A stretch of DNA of 39,548 nucleotides, taken from the IMG/VR virus record IMGVR_UViG_2519899835_000008; one strand, written 5' to 3'. This stretch comes from a virus (Duplodnaviria > Heunggongvirae > Uroviricota > Caudoviricetes). Positions 21,865-39,548 of the stretch are shown here, one piece after another. Position 1 is the first letter of the stretch; every line of letters starts with the position of its first letter. The position numbers and the translations under genes were made by a program. The notes beneath the pieces are model-generated. The model saw only the letters and a list, made by a program, of their open reading frames with translations. It was not told where the DNA came from and searched no databases.

Positions 21865-23196
21865 TTAATCAATTTGTCCTTCCAGCACCTCAAGCATTCC
21901 GCCCCGGATATCCGATTTCAGCTTATCCATATTGATAACCCGGTAAGCATTCACAATCACATCCAGTTTGTCGGGCTGACGTTTCAGACTGTACGGTGCA
22001 TTAACGGCAATCTGCACACTGCCATCCTGATTTTCCACGATATACATCAGATTGTTGTGCCGTTTGTCCCACAGTACCGCTTTTGGCCTTGCCAGCATTG
22101 CCGGTAAGCGCCCGAAGTCCTCCGGCGTCAGAGCGATGCCGTCATTCTGATGTTTCACACTGTCCGCATGGAGCACATTTTTACCGCTCATCGCCAGCAG
22201 GCGGGCCGGTGGCGTTCCCGTCCGGCTTTCCACTGCCTGCGCAATGCTTTCAGTCATAAAGCCCAGCGTGCGGATATCGTTACCACCTCGCCGGGTCTGC
22301 ATGATGTTTTTTGCCCAGATGCGGAACGCCAGCTGCCGCTCCGGGCTGTTGTTCATCTCCTGAACCACCATTTCCCGTAACGCCGGGCTTTTCACCTCGA
22401 TCAGTTTGCGGATCAGCGCCTGGTCTGTGCCGAACGCTGCCGAGCCGGGGTTATATGACCAGCCCACATCCGGTGTCATGGTTCTGGTGCCATCTGAATA
22501 TGTGGTCACCGGCATTTCTCTGACTTCTCCGGTCTGTTTATCCACGCCAGCCTCAACATTGCGGGTGGAGAGATGATCCTCACCGGATGAAACGGATAAC
22601 CCCATTGCATCCAGACGGGCCTGAGACAATGGCCGCACACGGCAGCGGCAGTTCCAGCCATTGGGCGGGTAGTGTGTTTTCCAGAACGGATCGTCATAGC
22701 GGAATACCAGACCGTTAAGGGCGGAATGCGACGGGCGGGTACGGCTGTCCATGACCGCCACATACTGCCAGAACGGATGCGTGTCCGTGTTGTTCATCAT
22801 CTGCGTGTAACGCCCGGCATTGTAAGCCACACGGGTGTTCACGTTGTAAATCAGCGCCAGACGACGGGGACTGCCCAGCTGCACTTCTTCCGCGTTACCG
22901 TCGCTGTCCACCACAATCTGCTTTCCCCACCATCCCAGCTTTTGCAGGCGTGGCGTCAGCGTGCGGATAAATTCTTTCTGTGAAATCCCCTCATCAATGG
23001 CCCGCTGCACTTCGGCCTGTAATGTGGTCACCACATCCAGCCGTGCCGTTTTTGCTGCCGTGAATGAGCGGGCATGAACATCCGCGGCTGTTTCGAACCA
23101 GTTCCAGCTGATATGCGCCCCTTTGGCGCGGAAGTATGCCACCGTCTCTTTTGAGGGAAGCGTGGCGGCATAACCTAAATCAATCTCCTGAGCCAT
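21865..23196 (-). CDS. Head morphogenesis / minor capsid protein (Mu F-like)
   Basis: 443-aa ORF immediately downstream of and overlapping the portal gene end. Confidence 0.7.
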   Translation of the reverse strand: MAQEIDLGYAATLPSKETVAYFRAKGAHISWNWFETAADVHARSFTAAKTARLDVVTTLQAEVQRAIDEGISQKEFIRTLTPRLQKLGWWGKQIVVDSDGNAEEVQLGSPRRLALIYNVNTRVAYNAGRYTQMMNNTDTHPFWQYVAVMDSRTRPSHSALNGLVFRYDDPFWKTHYPPNGWNCRCRVRPLSQARLDAMGLSVSSGEDHLSTRNVEAGVDKQTGEVREMPVTTYSDGTRTMTPDVGWSYNPGSAAFGTDQALIRKLIEVKSPALREMVVQEMNNSPERQLAFRIWAKNIMQTRRGGNDIRTLGFMTESIAQAVESRTGTPPARLLAMSGKNVLHADSVKHQNDGIALTPEDFGRLPAMLARPKAVLWDKRHNNLMYIVENQDGSVQIAVNAPYSLKRQPDKLDVIVNAYRVINMDKLKSDIRGGMLEVLEGQID

Positions 23197-30328: not shown

Positions 30329-30621
30329 GCTGTATCAACACTCCTGCTGATATGATAGATATTATTTTCCCGATCGAGCTGAACCCGATACTCCGGAGGA
30401 ATCACAAAAATATTAAAACCATCAACAGTTTTTATTCTTGAGTAGTATTCCCCCTTATGATATCTGGCAAGTGCATTAATCAGAGAAGCCGCCGCCAGCC
30501 CAATCAGGTATTTTTTATGAAAAATACTGATAACTTTCCGGCACAGCCATCGTGTAATGACGAATGCACCGAAAAACGATGTGATATATAAACACCAGAA
30601 CAACTGCGAACTACTGTCCAT
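30325..30621 (-). CDS. Hypothetical membrane protein (98 aa)
   Basis: Two hydrophobic segments (LFWCLYITSFFGAFVITRWL, LIGLAAASLINALA); overlapping start/stop with neighbours. Confidence 0.45.
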   Translation of the reverse strand: MDSSSQLFWCLYITSFFGAFVITRWLCRKVISIFHKKYLIGLAAASLINALARYHKGEYYSRIKTVDGFNIFVIPPEYRVQLDRENNIYHISRSVDTA

Positions 30622-35259: not shown

Positions 35260-35487
35260 TTAGCTGATTCGTTTTGCACCGATAAAACGACAAATATTGC
35301 TGTAAGCTTCTTTCGCACCTTCACGATCAAGTCCTGCCGATATTGCCATTCTGGTGCGATCATTAAATTCAAAAAGTAAATCGCCACATTCTTCACTGTC
35401 AGACACGGAGACTGCTTTGACGTTATCGAAATTCACCAGGTGAAAGCGTCCGTAAATATCAGGAATATTAAATGCAATCATAATCAC
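35260..35487 (-). CDS. Hypothetical protein (75 aa; Mu kil position)
   Basis: ORF immediately downstream of, and overlapping, the B-like ATPase gene. Confidence 0.4.
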   Translation of the reverse strand: MIMIAFNIPDIYGRFHLVNFDNVKAVSVSDSEECGDLLFEFNDRTRMAISAGLDREGAKEAYSNICRFIGAKRIS

Positions 35488-36416
35488 ACCTGTGAGAGTA
35501 ATTCAGGGTTGGTATAAACCTCTTTAAAGGCCGCATTAATATGTTTTTCTGTCAGCGCCGCGCCTTCACCACTGGCGGTGATCCATGCCTGGTTAAGCGT
35601 ATGTGTCAGAACACGTAATGCTCCCGGTTTTTCAGCGATAGCCTGCATGACAGCCAGCTCGGCCTCACCACTGATACCCCACGCCCTGGCAATAGCCAGC
35701 ACATCCGCCTTTTTGGCCTTGCGAAGTTGTTTTGTACGGGCAAGACGGCTGAACAGGCGCGATAAATCATCAACGGCGCGGCGCCCCCCCTTAAACAGTC
35801 CGCGCGGGTTACCAATAAGCACCATCCCGATCCCCGTGGCGTCCTGGATTGCACGCAGTTGTTCCAGACCGTCAATACCAAGATGATCCGCCTCATCAAC
35901 AATCACCAGTCCACGCGTTCCCATCAGGCGACGGCGGATGGCGCGGGATAATGCCCCTTTGTTCGCGCGGGTGTAATCAATTCCCAGCTCCTCGGCCAGC
36001 TCCAGCAGACACTCCGTGACGCTGGAATGCGCGGGAGACAGGGTTATCATCCAGGTGTTCGGTTGCTCCTGACAGTAATTACGGGCCGTGGCCGTTTTAC
36101 CCACACCCGGTACGCCCACAATGACGTTAATACAGCCCATCAGGCGAACCGCCTGAAACAGCGCGCGCAGCTCCTGGACTGTCTGCGTTTCCACAAACTG
36201 CGGCGGTTCCGGCAGTGCGCTTTGTTTATTCCAGTTCTCATACCAGGAACGCAGGGAAGCAGCCACAGCGACGTTATCGCCTTTATATTTCCCCTTGCGG
36301 AAAGCCGATAATGTACCGTCGGAAATTCCCGCCTCTCTGGCGATGGCATACTGCGTCAGTACGCCGCCATCAATAAGTTCATCAATGGTCTTGATTACAT
36401 CGTTAATATCGGTCAT
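35484..36416 (-). CDS. Transposition target-DNA activator, AAA+ ATPase (MuB-like)
   Basis: 310-aa ORF with Walker A GVPGVGKT, Walker B-like LVIVDEADH and N-terminal helix-turn-helix; directly downstream of the transposase. Confidence 0.85.
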   Translation of the reverse strand: MTDINDVIKTIDELIDGGVLTQYAIAREAGISDGTLSAFRKGKYKGDNVAVAASLRSWYENWNKQSALPEPPQFVETQTVQELRALFQAVRLMGCINVIVGVPGVGKTATARNYCQEQPNTWMITLSPAHSSVTECLLELAEELGIDYTRANKGALSRAIRRRLMGTRGLVIVDEADHLGIDGLEQLRAIQDATGIGMVLIGNPRGLFKGGRRAVDDLSRLFSRLARTKQLRKAKKADVLAIARAWGISGEAELAVMQAIAEKPGALRVLTHTLNQAWITASGEGAALTEKHINAAFKEVYTNPELLSQV

Positions 36417-36487: not shown

Positions 36488-38578
36488 TCAGGCCAGTGGA
36501 TCACTTTCTTTTAATTTTGCTTCGAGCAGTTGCAATCCCCGCTGGAAATTACGCTCGTATTCTTCATCAGGTTCATCGTCAGCGACCGGTTGCTGAACGG
36601 TCACCGTATTACCCACAGGGCGGTATATGTTTTCCAGCCATGGCTCCTGCGGCTTGTGCTCCAGCACGTTGACAACCTCATCCTCGGCATCACGGATTTT
36701 TTCCTCTGCGCGTTTACGCATACCTTTAAGGCGCTGTTGCTGTTTGTAGTATTCCGCGCTGACCGGGAAGGCTTCGCGTTTATTGCCGTCCCATACCGCC
36801 TCGCAAATCACGCTGCCATCCGGGCGACGAACGGTAATTCGTTCGGCATCATGAATGTCATAGCTGATAAGCACCTTGCGGCCATGCTCATCACGCAGCT
36901 CGGGCGCGTAGTAAATATTGTTCAGCCAGCGTATTTCACAGCGTCTTACAGGGCGCTCCACCATCGGCCGGAACATGTCCCGCAATTCCACATCGGACAG
37001 CCATTCAATTTCCGTATCCTCTTCTGCCAGGCGTTTTTTTCTGAACTCCGCCGGGCTGTAATGCTTGCCGTTCGGCTTCACCGGTAATTCATCGTGCGGC
37101 CGGTTGTTGTACCACTCAACACCGTCACGAATGGCATCAATCAGTTCAGACCAGGACGGTAAATCACGCATCGCTGACTGCTGCCGGGCGTTCAGCCGTT
37201 TGCCCTGTTGCAGGGCAGTAAATGCCGAGCGTAAATCGCGGTTGGTTTTACGTAACGTCTCGCGATCTGCACCTTTCCCGAAATAGGTGCGGTATCTGCG
37301 GGCTATGCGCATCGGTAATGTGCGGTTAAGCCGTTCGATAATGCCCCGTCCCTGCGGGTTACCGGCAATTCCGGTCGGGTGATTAATCCCCAGTCGCGGC
37401 AGTATCCCCACAATCTCTTTATCCAGGATGTCGGCCGTTTCCCCGGAGCCGTTATCCGAGTAATACAGAAACGGTTTGCCGTGATGGCGAATACCGTGCT
37501 GTATGGCGCCGGCTACGGCGAAAACATTTTCAGCCAGGTCAAGGCTCCAGCCCACCACAAAGCGCGTGCCACCGTCGATAACAAAGGTCACTTCCGGTGC
37601 AAATGGCCGCCCGTGAACCGGGTGCCTGCATTTCAGCTTCATGCCGTGACCGTCACCAATCCAGACATAATTAACCGGCATTTTTGACCAGTCGCGGCGC
37701 GTGAATCCCTCAAGCTGGCGGTATTCACTGCCGGTCACCCGGCCTTTTTGTTTCACCACTTCCGGCAATTTTTTCATTGCGCGGCGAATAGTGTCATAAG
37801 AGGGCATGATATCGAGCATATAAGGCTCATCAGCGTGCCGGTGCTGCCATTCGGCGACAAAATCCTCGTAAGCCTCGGTCATTGGTCGGCCGTTTGACTG
37901 GCGATACTGCGCCAGAAATTCGGGCAGCCAGTTAATATCTTCGGCTTTTATTTCCTGGCGTTTACCCGGTGCCAGTAAAAGCAGGCGTTCAGCGGCGTTC
38001 TGTGCCTTGTTAAAGGCCGCAATCCAGCGTTTCAGCGTGATTTCACTCAACGCGCGGCGGTTTCCCTTTTTGGCGTTCGCTGTCTCAACCATTGCCACAA
38101 TGCGCTCGTCCAGTTGTGAGCGTGACAGACGGTCAACAATAAACCGGATAGCTTTAGCGCAGCTGAAACCGGGTTGTTGCGCGAATTTCAGCACCTCGCT
38201 GACAATCGCGATTCGTGCATCAGCCACCTGGCGCTGGTTTTCAGTCAGGGCATTGAGGCGTTCGACCATCAGTTGTGGTGAACCGCGATATGCCTCCACC
38301 GCATCAACCACGTCAGGTGAGCGTCTGGCCTTTGTCACCACCGGAGCCGGTGATTCGTCGGCTTTTTGCGTCATCAGTTGCAGGGCGTAGCGTTCACGCA
38401 ATGCCTGCTGCGTCACTTCAGGTAAACAGTCGATGCTGTATTCAGTTGCTTTAGAGCCTGAGCGACGACGGGAACAACAGCTTTTCCCTTGTGCGTAACG
38501 TTGTAATGCCTGGCGAATACCTTTTGTTGTAGCAGGCATTCCGGGCGCGCCAATCAGTTCTTTTGCAATGACATACAT
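36488..38578 (-). CDS. DDE transposase (MuA-like)
   Basis: 696-aa ORF following ner; DDE core region WIGDGHGMK...FVIDGGTRFVVGWSL resembling the Mu transposase catalytic domain. Confidence 0.85.
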   Translation of the reverse strand: MYVIAKELIGAPGMPATTKGIRQALQRYAQGKSCCSRRRSGSKATEYSIDCLPEVTQQALRERYALQLMTQKADESPAPVVTKARRSPDVVDAVEAYRGSPQLMVERLNALTENQRQVADARIAIVSEVLKFAQQPGFSCAKAIRFIVDRLSRSQLDERIVAMVETANAKKGNRRALSEITLKRWIAAFNKAQNAAERLLLLAPGKRQEIKAEDINWLPEFLAQYRQSNGRPMTEAYEDFVAEWQHRHADEPYMLDIMPSYDTIRRAMKKLPEVVKQKGRVTGSEYRQLEGFTRRDWSKMPVNYVWIGDGHGMKLKCRHPVHGRPFAPEVTFVIDGGTRFVVGWSLDLAENVFAVAGAIQHGIRHHGKPFLYYSDNGSGETADILDKEIVGILPRLGINHPTGIAGNPQGRGIIERLNRTLPMRIARRYRTYFGKGADRETLRKTNRDLRSAFTALQQGKRLNARQQSAMRDLPSWSELIDAIRDGVEWYNNRPHDELPVKPNGKHYSPAEFRKKRLAEEDTEIEWLSDVELRDMFRPMVERPVRRCEIRWLNNIYYAPELRDEHGRKVLISYDIHDAERITVRRPDGSVICEAVWDGNKREAFPVSAEYYKQQQRLKGMRKRAEEKIRDAEDEVVNVLEHKPQEPWLENIYRPVGNTVTVQQPVADDEPDEEYERNFQRGLQLLEAKLKESDPLA

Positions 38579-38579
38579 A

Positions 38580-38828
38580 TCATGACGCCTTTCTCATATA
38601 GCTCTTAACCTGGTATCTACTGGGCCAGATTTCTTCAGGCGATACCCCAAGAGCATCAGCAATTATTTGCTGATACGGGCGGCAAGGAGTACGTAATACG
38701 CTTTTCAGCGAGTCCCTGCTGTAACCAGCCTTTAAAGATAAAGAGCGCAGTGATAAGCCAGCCATGTGTAGGCGCGCCTTGATGATTTCTGGCGGCCAAT
38801 CGTGATCTGAAACTTCTCTTCTACTCAT
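38580..38828 (-). CDS. ner: Ner-like DNA-binding regulator
   Basis: 82-aa ORF with LSLRSLSLKAGYSRDSLKSVL...QQIIADALGVSPEEIWPSRY matching the Mu Ner pattern; AGAGGAAG ribosome-binding site. Confidence 0.85.
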   Translation of the reverse strand: MSRREVSDHDWPPEIIKARLHMAGLSLRSLSLKAGYSRDSLKSVLRTPCRPYQQIIADALGVSPEEIWPSRYQVKSYMRKAS

Positions 38829-39017
38829 ACTTCCTCTATCCTAAAAAGTTACCCGCGCGGATATTCGTACGGATATCTGTACGGGTAAATAATGCATCAC
38901 TAAAAATACCAAATCAAGGTATTTTTGGTATTTTCCTTGTTTTTTCTTTTATCCTTATTTTTCAATTGGATACACAGAAAGAAACCTTTCATTAGAAAAG
39001 CACCAAGAGGTATCTTT
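38829..39017. promoter_or_regulatory. Divergent early promoter / operator region between ner and repressor
   Basis: Near-palindrome CGTACGGATATCTGTACG (38866-38883) flanked by TTACCCG / CGGGTAA; 11-bp inverted repeat AAAATACCAAA / TTTGGTATTTT (38903-38934); AT-rich. Confidence 0.55.
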
Positions 39018-39548
39018 ATGTCGCAGGGAAAAGAACCTGTTATTGAACGTATTGGGATGCTTACAAAACGCTATCCTTCAAGAAGTGCAGCTGCCAGAGC
39101 GTGGGGAATTAATATCAACACATTAAACAGCTATTTCAAGGGAGGGCAAACACAACCAGCCCCAAGAGAAAGCATTCTTATACGAATTTCTAAAAGTGAA
39201 GGTGTTAGTCTTGAGTGGCTTAAAGAGGGCAAGGGAGAATCACCAAAAGACATTGGTATTTCTGGTGATTTTGGTTGTTCTGGTGATAAGGGAGATCAGC
39301 TTACACAGATGCTTTCATTCCTCACGAAAGACGAACGAGAACAACTAACCAATCTCCTTGCTCGCAAAGGTGTAGAGACTGTTCTGACACTACTGGATAA
39401 AGAAAACCAGGATTTATTACAACTAGAGGGCAGGAAGCGCCTGGCTGCTTTGATGATTGTGGATATGCCTGACGATAGTGTCAGAGAGATTTTGGAAAAA
39501 ACCGAGACAAGTAGGCAATCAAATCCGGTAGAATCTAAAGCGGGTTAG
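39018..39548 (+). CDS. Mu c-type lysogeny repressor
   Basis: Divergent from ner; start at ATG 39018 with AAGAGG ribosome-binding site; N-terminal DNA-binding-like region; ORF ends exactly at window end with TAG. Confidence 0.7.
   Translation: MSQGKEPVIERIGMLTKRYPSRSAAARAWGININTLNSYFKGGQTQPAPRESILIRISKSEGVSLEWLKEGKGESPKDIGISGDFGCSGDKGDQLTQMLSFLTKDEREQLTNLLARKGVETVLTLLDKENQDLLQLEGRKRLAALMIVDMPDDSVREILEKTETSRQSNPVESKAG

Follow-up and report, generated by a model that had tools for sequence, protein, structure and literature searches.

Candidate Ner and repressor operators in the ner-repressor spacer of an Sp18-type Mu-like Escherichia coli prophage

The 189-bp spacer that separates ner from the divergent repressor gene of a Mu-like E. 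coli prophage (positions 38829-39017 of the 39,548-nucleotide stretch of DNA analysed, here referred to as the window) carries two conserved kinds of symmetric DNA site, with Ner and the repressor, respectively, most likely as their candidate binders. Based on sequence comparison, this spacer would constitute the lysis/lysogeny switch of an Sp18-type Mu-like prophage, a reading to which, site-to-protein assignment included, we give a probability of about 0.6. It is an ordinary and expected kind of phage control region, and what is new is its site-level dissection for the Sp18-type Mu-like prophages; the literature searched contained no study of operators, footprints, binding or transcription starts in Sp18-type phages.

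To the left of the spacer lie ner, then a MuA-like transposase gene and then a B gene, and to its right the divergent repressor gene. According to the RefSeq annotation, ner (38580-38828, minus strand) encodes a Cro-like early regulator of 82 aa, identical to WP_001310454.1, while the repressor gene (39018-39548, plus strand) encodes a protein of 176 aa identical to WP_000077538.1. Prophages of the Sp18 type occur commonly: of 5426 complete E. coli genomes, 204 have a match to the spacer, O157:H7 and further Shiga-toxin strains among them, and some of its copies are located within Stx phages. Further, the prophage occupies a different host gene in each strain examined, and this strain-to-strain difference in the insertion gene indicates that Sp18-type prophages transpose. 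The comparison set comprised 25 related ner-repressor spacers, 26 with the window's own, drawn from viral contigs and exact-protein look-ups; the identified hosts of some of these relatives are E. coli, Yersinia, Pseudomonas, Cedecea and Edwardsiella. On conservation, the lack of which in both palindromes the original prediction had named as a refuting case, both classes of site stand at fixed positions in related Mu-like (pro)phages, with elements 1 and 2, as defined below, holding constant offsets from the ner start across the 26 spacers. A chance origin of the repeats was rejected on this conservation together with 2000 dinucleotide shuffles of 38829-39017, which reached the observed values in at most 0.2% of cases for every repeat tested. 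All the co-variation counts given below ignore shared ancestry and come from few independent clades.

Ner is a member of the HTH_35 family (Pfam PF13693, E 2.5e-19), with profile matches to Mu Ner (1NEQ, 1.5e-13) and EnrR (7F9H, 1e-10), and this Ner-family protein is encoded by the first gene of the early operon, as is characteristic of the Mu/D108-type Ner operator. Its candidate operator, element 1 (TTACCCGCGCGGATAT-TCGTACGG-ATATCTGTACGGGTAA, 38849-38888), is conserved in all 26 spacers. If the early promoter, Pe, is where conservation and scans of relatives predict it, element 1 falls between this promoter and the ribosome-binding site of ner. Element 1 is a 40-bp near-palindrome with 16 of 20 pairs complementary about the axis 38868/69, matched by none of the 2000 shuffles; it may be described as four TAYCC-type half-sites (38849-55, 38858-64, 38873-79 and 38882-88) or, alternatively, as three CCGNNCGG cores (38853-60, 38865-72 and 38877-84) spaced 12 bp. 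Across relatives, 254 of 340 cells were Watson-Crick-symmetric (75%), compared with 233.6 ± 4.7 (~69%) from column composition, a symmetry that 5000 column shuffles never equalled. Compensated changes were found in 9 of the 20 pairs (for instance, 38864/38873 is T-A in 6 loci and A-T in 9), and outside the E. coli-type clades (the window-type and L006/L018) the 38868/69 axis retains 12-17 of 20 pairs. The inner half-sites also vary along with the protein: GGATAA/TTATC go with Ner 'DWH', with one exception (L023), and GGATAT/ATATC with Ner 'DWP' or 'DWS' (two Ner clades). Adjoining element 1 is a 13-mer, CTATCCTAAAAAG (38836-38848, minus strand; reverse complement CTTTTTAGGATAG), near-invariant in 21 relatives, which holds the ner Shine-Dalgarno AGGA and might represent a U-run after an element 1 hairpin or a weak rightward -10 (TATCCT).

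The original prediction had described this region as containing a GATATC-centred near-palindrome and a separate 11-bp inverted repeat, and both are real: the former (CGTACGGATATCTGTACG, 38866-38883, 8 of 9 pairs complementary) was equalled or bettered in 0.15% of the 2000 shuffles, and the latter (38899-38929, 11 of 12 pairs) in 0.2%. The former is a sub-feature of element 1, and GATATC was rejected as the functional axis, with a symmetry of 59% across relatives, 3-6 of its 9 pairs kept once the E. coli-type clades are set aside, and GTTATC standing in relatives where the window has GATATC; read from the alignment, it is a local by-product of the conserved 40-bp element. The proposal of separate sites for Ner and the repressor that govern divergent transcription is retained in its essentials, as comparative evidence distinguishes two conserved classes of dyad, with the axis of the first moved from GATATC to 38868/69. 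On the repressor side the second repeat holds as a candidate, but the operator consists of several units rather than one, and the site recurs at 38996-39017 in a dyad that the first reading had overlooked.

The predicted Pe consists of a minus-strand -10 hexamer, CATTAT (38889-38894; TATnnT in relatives), whose positions A2, T3 and T6 correspond to invariant or near-invariant columns, and a -35 hexamer, TTGATT (38912-38917, minus strand; TTGACA or TTGACT in some relatives), separated by a 17-nt spacer. In relatives, the sole sigma-70-like match falls at the Pe-homologous site (9-10/12), and Pe in the window itself scores 8/12, below promoter-scan calling. For the rightward promoter of the repressor gene, Pc, no plus-strand sigma-70-like site was found at the scan threshold in the window spacer or in three relatives; a weak candidate picked by eye (-35 TTCTCT, 38814-19; -10 TATCCT, 38837-42) is speculative and would mimic the face-to-face layout of Mu.

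Element 2, the candidate repressor operator over Pe (~38895-38935), has its dyad axis at 38914 and straddles the Pe -35 hexamer. Its core, AAAAATACC (38902-10)-AAATCAA-GGTATTTTT (38918-26), has perfect arms, AAAAATACC / GGTATTTTT with N7 between them, and belongs to the inverted repeat ACTAAAAATACC / GGTATTTTTGGT (38899-38910 and 38918-38929; 11 of 12 complementary, 7-nt gap), flanked by the outer units AGTGAT (reverse complement of 38895-38900) and GGTATTTT (38927-34). Perfect 9-nt arms appeared in 0 of 2000 shuffles, and a second register of 10 perfect pairs (38903-38912 with 38925-34) exists because GGTATTTT is tandemly duplicated. The best axis lies within ~1 position in 20 of the 26 spacers and is displaced by 3-5 in the other six; relatives retain 9-15 of 18 pairs, save for the distant L031 with 8, where the background is ~4.8. 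The motif is concentrated in the spacer: three of the four exact copies of GGTATYTTT in the 39.5-kb window are found there, with 0.42 expected in the whole window. One of the four, GGTATCTTT, is part of element 3 (AAAAGCACC-AAGA-GGTATCTTT, 38996-39017), a second repressor-type dyad that shares the half-site form GGTWYTTTT with element 2. Elsewhere in the window the motifs recur as TTATCCATATTGATAA (21923-38) and as GGTATTTTT (30507-15), in both cases inside long ORFs, and these copies were treated as chance. The repressor Shine-Dalgarno (AAGAGG, 39005-10) falls within element 3, and the ATG (39018) directly follows the dyad. Element 3 is homologous to AAAAGAAC-N6-GTTCTTTT in relatives, non-coding here yet retained. 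In alignments, the start-codon position of the relatives, ATG in most and GTG in one, corresponds to an ATT in the window (38991-38993, plus strand, in frame with the start), where the ORF is in frame from 38925. Elements 2 and 3 lie ~92 bp apart, and their core GTWY units are 9 bp apart in element 2 and 6 bp apart in element 3, an unequal spacing that is awkward for a rigid dimer.

The DNA-binding domain of the repressor is predicted to be a 434/P22-type HTH and not that of Mu c. Its AlphaFold2 model (mean pLDDT 73) displays an N-terminal 5-helix HTH (predicted helices 8-16, 22-29, 33-39, 51-61 and 65-70) followed by a helical C-terminal domain, and Foldseek matched it to the DNA-binding domains of P22 c2, 434, SinR and 186 CI with a TM of ~0.7 (target-normalised 0.69-0.75 for P22 c2, 434 Cro and SinR), matches that are weak in E-value (all at least 0.025, none at or below 0.001). 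Dimers of the P22 c2/434/SinR-type fold bind dyad-symmetric sites. Some repressor homologues carry PF07022; for the window repressor, the Pfam search gave nothing above threshold, with only a sub-threshold YfeC-like match, and the PDB sequence search returned only matches at E ~0.5-0.9, to a regulator and to the 434 repressor. No Mu-type DNA-binding domain was found by Pfam, and BLASTP against the transposase gave E values of at least 2.9, with no similarity to the transposase N-terminus. An S24 (LexA-like) autocleavage domain had no Pfam match either, and the C-terminal half is all-helical in the model; a repressor lacking this RecA-cleavage domain is consistent with the report that Sp18 is not mitomycin-inducible (PMC2669165).

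The sequence of element 2 follows that of the repressor. Position 4 of its left half-site is a purine in 10/10 spacers whose repressor helix 3 ends in ..SYF, and T in 15/15 spacers where helix 3 ends in ..NYY or ..SYY, an agreement between core and helix-3 residues in 25/25 spacers, uncorrected for phylogeny; the right-hand unit (GGTAT or GGTGT) is independent of repressor type in many relatives. The dyad sites overlap the predicted lytic promoter and track repressor specificity, as do operators of the cI/434/P22 type. Upstream of the Pe -35, T-tracts phased with a 9-10 bp period were read from the sequence (38922-38963), and a T-rich 9-bp periodicity is present in relatives too; these are possibly intrinsically bent DNA, a UP-like element, or degenerate extra half-sites. 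They are followed by a weak IHF-like site, TTTCAATTGGATA (38960-38972, plus strand), with 2 mismatches to WATCAANNNNTTR and not significant in the window, at which a conserved TCAAT block is visible. At the corresponding offset, L023 and L028 have a perfect match, as does L031 (whose spacer is ~25 nt longer), and 9 others of the first 21 relatives have one mismatch; by eye, the match is perfect in L046 and one mismatch away in L047. The IHF-type bend site that had been offered as an alternative explanation fits neither of the two repeats then named, this sole IHF-like consensus lying elsewhere and being weak here. An IHF site at AATCAAGGTATTT was also rejected, the Pe -35, which reads TTGACA in relatives, being the better account of this block.

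In the mechanism that we propose, Pe would fire leftwards from a start near 38882, and element 1 would be an operator for Ner just downstream of the -10, covering the first ~35 transcribed bases. Several Ner molecules would probably assemble on the four two-fold-symmetric TAYCC half-sites, throttling early transcription and any rightward transcription that crosses element 1. The repressor, with its cI/434-type HTH, would bind elements 2 and 3: on element 2 it would cover the Pe -35 and spacer and exclude RNA polymerase, maintaining lysogeny, and on element 3, placed over its own ribosome-binding site and start, it would exert autoregulation and/or cooperative looping, the latter possibly aided by the phased T-tracts and the weak IHF-like site between elements 2 and 3.

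The DNA-binding regions of both proteins and both classes of site are conserved, so that conservation alone cannot assign the sites, and the assignment could be swapped, with the cI-type repressor on element 1, blocking Pe just past its start, and Ner on the T-rich GGTATTTTT units; the AT-rich palindromes preferred by EnrR are indeed nearer to element 2 in composition (PMC9023278). The mosaic relatives, however, point the opposite way. In those that combine the identical Ner with a repressor of only ~44-47% identity, ner and element 1 agree at 95-98% of positions, and the figure falls to 40-72% from ~38889 rightwards (elements 2 and 3 and the repressor gene), with the junction at ~38889-38895. 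As judged from these alignments, element 1 travels with ner, and elements 2 and 3 with the repressor gene, although this linkage could merely mirror the chance position of the recombination junction. Moreover, the half-site core of elements 2 and 3 follows the repressor helix-3 residues, the position of element 1 is that of the Ner site of Mu, and element 1 persists with Ner where the repressor is only 33% identical, namely in the distant L031 (Ner 46% identical), which keeps element 1 and has unrecognisable GGTWYTTTT units; we therefore regard the swap as quite unlikely. A different doubt concerns the T-rich repeats of element 2, which might not be specific to the repressor, and represent UP-like or curved A-tract promoter DNA, sites for IHF, Fis or H-NS, or an enhancer for the transposase N-terminal domain. 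This would fit the phased T-tracts from 38922 to 38963, the single mismatch of AATCAAGGTATTT to the IHF core, and the preservation of the right-hand GGTAT/GGTGT unit whatever the repressor type; in its enhancer form, it would also fit the HTH_Tnp_Mu_1 domain of the transposase and the precedent of Mu, whose operator doubles as an enhancer (PMC3820752). It is nonetheless unlikely: curvature leaves unexplained the within-phage co-variation of the GGTAT/GTTC core and its recurrence 92 bp off at the repressor start, the dyad symmetry about the -35 is conserved, and the AATCAA block is the Pe -35, becoming TTGACA in relatives that lose the IHF-like match. Nor can Mu's logic of shared sites be assumed automatically here, the repressor having no similarity to the N-terminus of the transposase.

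Element 1 might, on the other hand, act chiefly through RNA or DNA secondary structure and not as a protein operator, either as a ner-leader hairpin with a U-run that attenuates or stabilises the early transcript, or as a hairpin with which a rightward Pc transcript would begin. Its predicted folding (-23.1 kcal/mol, z -5.7, for the plus strand; -15.0 kcal/mol, z -2.7, for the minus strand), the compensated changes across its axis, the excess of G-T (43) over A-C (27) among the non-Watson-Crick cells, and a minus-strand GC hairpin plus T-run, CGCGCGGTTATCCGCGCG AATAACTTTT, which the scan of L025 and L028 placed in the ner leader, are all in favour. Yet an early RNA that begins at the predicted Pe start, near 38882, would miss the greater part of the outer arm, a protein assembly of two-fold symmetry would be expected to leave compensated symmetry just as much, element 1 of the window was unflagged in the terminator scan, and the G-T excess favours the plus strand, where the promoter scan found no promoter. 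Both forms taken together are improbable as the chief function, and a structural role would not preclude a Ner operator, the two being compatible. The terminator scan did flag the inverted repeat 38899-38929 with the ATTTTCC behind it as terminator-like (12 pairs; plus-strand RNA -12.6 kcal/mol, z -3.95), which would make it an intrinsic terminator or attenuator. This is very improbable: only 3 of 12 stem pairs are G-C, the 74.5% pairing over 17 relatives does not exceed that of column shuffles (35/500), the variable core pair is broken in 9/17 relatives, and the repeat is placed upstream of the very gene into which it would terminate, its minus-strand copy being upstream of the Pe start. Given the few G-C pairs and the pairing no better than shuffled, 38899-38929 found no support as a terminator or RNA hairpin.

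The reading with Ner on element 1 and the repressor on elements 2 and 3 can be extended to a wider, doubtful proposal, in which Mu c was replaced by an unrelated cI-type repressor while the Mu-style layout was kept, element 1 having a dual DNA/RNA role and the phased GGTWYTTTT units acting also as the transposition enhancer. If true, element 1, between face-to-face early and repressor promoters, would be the binding site of an ordered Ner oligomer and, when folded, a leader hairpin or attenuator, and the overlap of sites for non-homologous proteins would couple repression to the blocking of the enhancer. The value of the main reading is practical and not surprising, as the switch map provides concrete targets for immunity groups, induction and SOS non-response. 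Furthermore, the GGTAT and GTTC half-sites, with SYF and NYY repressors, respectively, offer a natural specificity series for protein-DNA recognition, of which one Ner module common to several immunity types is also part.

Among the closest known systems are Mu and D108, whose Ner operators combine a Ner-family first early gene with an inverted-repeat site between the early promoter and ner, as would hold here for the predicted Pe, and whose multiple repeat units likewise suggest multimeric binding. D108 Ner is said to have been described by Kukolj et al. in 1989 as oligomerising on DNA, and its operator reportedly has an 11-bp repeat. In Mu, the Ner site (AGCTAGCTAAGT-N6-ACTTAGTTAAAT, ~1028-1057) adjoins the annotated Pe (991-1028), upstream of ner. 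The comparison with this site, which the original prediction had suggested, showed an analogous position and no half-site in common with 38849-38888: the half-sites here are TAYCC/CCGNNCGG and those of Mu CTAAGT, the Mu 12-bp Ner consensus (ANYTARCTAAGT) is not matched by 38849-38888, and element 1 extends over ~40 bp with four half-sites at centre spacings of 10, 14 and 10 bp, unlike the two 11-12-bp repeats over ~30 bp of Mu. The two Ner proteins are ~40% identical (by eye, from the profile alignment). The candidate repressor operators resemble Mu O1-O2-O3 in forming two clusters, one over Pe and a distal one beside the repressor gene, with possibly bendable or IHF-like DNA between the clusters and divergent ner and repressor genes. 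They differ in that the repressor here is without the Mu c-type DNA-binding domain shared with the transposase, and in that the IHF match is weak here (2 mismatches), though many relatives have a perfect or one-mismatch match at this offset; the Mu operator is at once operator and transposition enhancer, 'O/E' (PMC3820752).

The lambdoid cI/Cro switches (lambda OR, 434 and P22), together with 186 CI (PF07022), share with this region, as read here, a 5-helix HTH repressor, dyad-symmetric operators that overlap the lytic promoter, a Cro to which Ner, made from the lytic transcript, is analogous, and immunity modules swapped by recombination. In contrast to them, Ner and the repressor here appear to use distinct, non-overlapping sites, with no competition for a shared operator, and the S24 peptidase/RecA-cleavage domain is absent. 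Finally, EnrR from Edwardsiella (PDB 7F9H/7F9I) belongs to the same protein family as Ner (E 1e-10) and is a global binder of AT-rich DNA that prefers AT-rich palindromes (AATAAATNATTTATT / CTATAG), two monomers packing closely on a short continuous palindrome (PMC9023278). On the model of EnrR, two Ner molecules could occupy each of the compact palindromic cores of element 1, although these cores, unlike the EnrR site, are GC-rich and flanked by TA steps.

The right part of the window is the early end of a Mu-like prophage, in which the B gene (35484-36416), the gene for a MuA-like transposase (36488-38578; Mu-transpos_C and HTH_Tnp_Mu_1 domains) and ner (38580-38828; HTH_35, E 2.5e-19) lie on the minus strand, and a divergent gene for a repressor of 176 aa lies on the plus strand (39018-39548), its last base being the window end. 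The stop codon of ner (38580-38582) and the transposase start (38576-38578) are separated by one base, which suggests that both genes may be translationally coupled; since the window ends with the repressor stop codon, the phage left end falls outside it. Segment 38560-39548 displays 100% identity to E. coli FORC_069 and about 95.6% to the O157:H7 Mu-like prophage, and matches were found in 204 of 5426 complete E. coli genomes. The Mu-like prophage of strain Sakai was named Sp18 (PMC2669165), used here as a type name, although Sakai is absent among the matches listed. Among the remoter relatives are Yersinia phage vB_YpM_Tongde and Pseudomonas phage VW-6B, both with annotated Ner and C repressor genes. 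In related loci L003, L004, L005, L006 and L007 the prophage ends about 240-260 bp past the repressor stop, in a different disrupted host gene per strain (a fimbrial usher gene adjoining elfG, dcuC, cah, a DUF945 gene and ypdB), as would be expected if Sp18-type phages had recently transposed at random. The same Mu-like element (95.7% identity) is also annotated within Stx1a- and Stx2c-converting phages (LC727881.1, LC727895.1), and therefore transposes into other prophages.

The ner-repressor spacer, 38829-39017, is a genuine control region of an expected kind, both conserved and non-random. The original prediction had proposed separate Ner and repressor sites at two dyad elements; a literature search found no study of operators in the Sp18-type lineage. 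Both repeats are present: the GATATC-centred near-palindrome at 38866-38883 (8/9 pairs complementary), and an inverted repeat at 38899-38910 and 38918-38929 (11/12, with the perfect core AAAAATACC / GGTATTTTT), the latter not being supported as a terminator. Among 2000 dinucleotide-preserving shuffles of the spacer, repeats of such quality arose in 0.15% and 0.2%, respectively, and none matched a larger 40-bp near-palindrome at 38849-38888 (16/20 pairs), hereafter element 1. The proposal was right in outline; it needs correcting for where the Ner-type element is centred and how far it reaches, and it overlooked a second repressor-type dyad.

For comparison, 26 ner-repressor spacers were gathered from annotated E. 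coli genomes and phages, IMG/VR contigs, one Cedecea genome, and five exact-protein look-ups (Edwardsiella anguillarum, and four from E. coli and Klebsiella/Serratia-type repressor clusters, named as in the sources). The ner start codon and the repressor start-codon position are separated by a near-constant distance of roughly 165-170 nt (about 25 nt more in the distant locus L031), and features are therefore comparable in register. Element 1 occurs at the same offset in all relatives, with the consensus TTAYCCG-NN-CGGATAW-CCGNNCGG-WTATCY-NNNN-GGRTAA. Its centre is GGATAACCG-NN-CGGTTATCC in Tongde, VW-6B and most other relatives, so that the conserved dyad axis is 38868/69 and not the GATATC centre, about which only 3-6 of 9 pairs hold outside the E. 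coli-type clades. About 38868/69, 12-17 of 20 pairs are symmetric in all loci but L031, where the symmetry is kept around an axis moved by a 2-3-nt central insertion. In counts that ignore kinship, 254 of 340 cells across 17 distinct sequences are Watson-Crick symmetric (233.6+-4.7 expected from within-column shuffles, 0/5000 reaching the observed value), and 9 of 20 pairs show two Watson-Crick types, such as 38864/38873 (T-A in 6, A-T in 9) and 38852/38885 (C-G in 5, T-A in 5). The element may equally be read as three CCGNNCGG cores (38853-60, 38865-72 and 38877-84) placed 12 bp apart, a parse that accounts for both the tandem repeat CGGATATYYGTA and the partial symmetry found at each 6-bp step, the GATATC axis included.

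Between elements 1 and 2, the latter being the second repeat with its surroundings (about 38895-38935), the invariant or near-invariant columns correspond to minus-strand -10 positions A2, T3 and T6 and to a -35 hexamer. The predicted leftward early promoter, Pe, has its -10 at 38889-94 (CATTAT in the window; TATTAT, TATTCT or TATGAT in relatives) and its -35 at 38912-17 (TTGATT; TTGACA or TTGACT in relatives), with a 17-nt spacer. A promoter scan of the window did not call Pe, which has 8/12 matches; in whole-spacer scans of L025, L028 and L005, the homologous minus-strand site was the sole hit (10/12, 10/12 and 9/12, respectively). Column conservation and these scans therefore place the predicted start at about 38882, from which element 1 would span the first ~35 transcribed bases up to the conserved CTTTTTAGGATAG, which contains the ner Shine-Dalgarno. 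A promoter search of the spacer did not locate the repressor promoter, Pc; by eye, a weak rightward candidate far from consensus (-35 TTCTCT at 38814-19, -10 TATCCT at 38837-42) would have its start at the left-hand end of element 1, resulting in Mu-like face-to-face promoters.

The core of element 2, AAAAATACC-AAATCAA-GGTATTTTT, flanks the Pe -35 on both sides. Its dyad (about 38914) holds its offset to within about one position in 20 of the 26 spacers and is displaced by 3-5 in six. Where the background averages about 4.8 of 18 pairs, the dyad keeps 9-15, or 8 in the distant L031; several relatives have arms lengthened to 15-16 nt with matching outer units (ATCACGAAAAATACC / GGTATTTTTCGTGAT in L020, ATCAACCAAAGTACC / GGTATTTTGGTTGAT in L045). 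Further direct copies of the unit motif, GGTWYTTTT, follow at a 9-bp phase and grade into phased T-tracts to about 38963. A second dyad of this unit, element 3, adjoins the repressor start: in relatives, AAAAGAAC-N6-GTTCTTTT lies inside repressor codons 3-9, and in the window AAAAGCACC-AAGA-GGTATCTTT (38996-39017) is non-coding, because ATT at 38991-38993 replaces the start codon of most relatives and translation begins at the annotated ATG (39018), 27 nt downstream, behind a new AAGAGG. This 27-nt shift, which yields a 189-nt spacer, is shared by window-type loci and by L044 and L045, where element 3 is likewise non-coding and its left arm is now AAAAATACC, the half-site type of their own phage. 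At 38991-38993, ATG occurs in most relatives, GTG in L021, and ATT in the window, O157/Sp18-type loci and Cedecea L008; L025 and L026 deviate as well. Most relatives have a 9-residue N-terminal extension (MxKExxGSF) that is missing from the window repressor, the frame of which is open from a TTG at 38925. The 39.5-kb window has four exact copies of GGTATYTTT (0.42 expected in its whole length), three of them in the spacer. Two isolated motif copies, TTATCCATATTGATAA at 21923-21938 (one mismatch to the Ner-type 16-mer) and GGTATTTTT at 30507-30515, both within long ORFs, are probably due to chance. In L007 (E. coli TOE17), a 10-11-bp deletion homologous to about 38931-38941 takes out most of the second GGTATTTT unit and the T-tract start, leaving the remaining spacer intact; it is a natural operator variant.

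Regarding the protein bound at each site, three indirect lines of comparative evidence agree in pointing to Ner at element 1 and the repressor at elements 2 and 3. NJS001-type prophages (L005, L024, L027) encode a Ner identical to that of the window and display 95-98% identity across the transposase 5' end, ner and element 1; rightwards of about 38889, identity is 41-72% across elements 2 and 3 and 37-57% in the repressor gene, their repressor protein being only about 44-47% identical overall to that of the window. In L005, L024, L027, L004 and L007, the mosaic breaks sharply at the Pe -10 (about 38889-38895). Among E. coli strains, Ner WP_001310454.1 occurs with at least four repressors (WP_000077538.1, WP_000077537.1, WP_005136380.1 and WP_001056416.1, the last about 44-47% identical to that of the window), and thus the Ner module is common to likely heteroimmune phages. 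Position 4 of the left element 2 half-site co-varies with repressor helix 3 (residues 33-39 in an AlphaFold2 model): it is a purine (GGTAT, GGTGT, GGTAC) in 10/10 spacers whose helix ends in ..SYF, and T (GGTTC or GTTC) in 15/15 with ..NYY or ..SYY. Similarly, the inner half-sites of element 1 are GGATAT/ATATC with Ner DWP or DWS and GGATAA/TTATC with DWH, a pairing that recurs in two separate Ner clades and is broken once, by L023 (DWH with CGAACAT). In L031 (Ner 46%, repressor 33% identical), element 1 is kept and GGTWYTTTT units are not recognisable. The swapped assignment, with the repressor at element 1 and Ner at the other sites, is disfavoured, since the mosaic and co-variation data point against it. 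Element 1 could also act as an RNA hairpin, an attenuator or stabiliser in the ner leader: its RNA fold is strong, and in the predicted leader of L025 and L028 it was flagged as a GC hairpin followed by a T-run. This terminator-like structure, CGCGCGG-TTAT-CCGCGCG followed by AATAACTTTTT (minus strand; L025 1327-1344, L028 1323-1342), is homologous to about 38853-38872 of the window, its T-run deriving from the conserved CCTAAAAAG block. Such a role could coexist with Ner binding.

The repressor gave no above-threshold Pfam hit; PF07022 is found on some homologues, which certain sources name 'bacteriophage CI repressor'. In the AlphaFold2 model (mean pLDDT 73), a 5-helix N-terminal domain superposes on the DNA-binding domains of P22 c2, 434 Cro and repressor, SinR and 186 CI (target-normalised TM 0.69-0.75, all matches with E >= 0.025). 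The repressor lacks an S24 peptidase domain, which fits the reported non-induction of Sp18 by mitomycin C (PMC2669165). No similarity to the transposase N-terminus was found; the repressor is therefore not of the Mu c type, and Mu-style site sharing between repressor and transposase is not to be assumed here.

With Ner at element 1 and the repressor at elements 2 and 3, in the lysogen the repressor would occlude the Pe -35 and spacer from element 2 and would also occupy element 3, the two centres lying about 92 bp apart. Phased T-tracts and a weak IHF-like core between them (38960-72, 2 mismatches in the window; perfect in L023 and L028 at the same offset, also in L031 and L046, and with one mismatch in many others) could favour looping and autoregulation. 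Once repression is lifted, Ner translated from the Pe transcript would assemble on element 1 and limit early transcription, as Ner does in Mu. In the EnrR-DNA structure, two Ner-family monomers are packed on a short continuous palindrome (PMC9023278); by analogy, each compact core of element 1 could take one Ner pair. Mu is arranged in the way predicted here for Pe, element 1 and ner: the repeats AGCTAGCTAAGT-N6-ACTTAGTTAAAT of its Ner site (about 1028-1057) come after the annotated Pe (991-1028) and before ner at 1099. The half-sites of element 1 are unrelated in sequence to those repeats.
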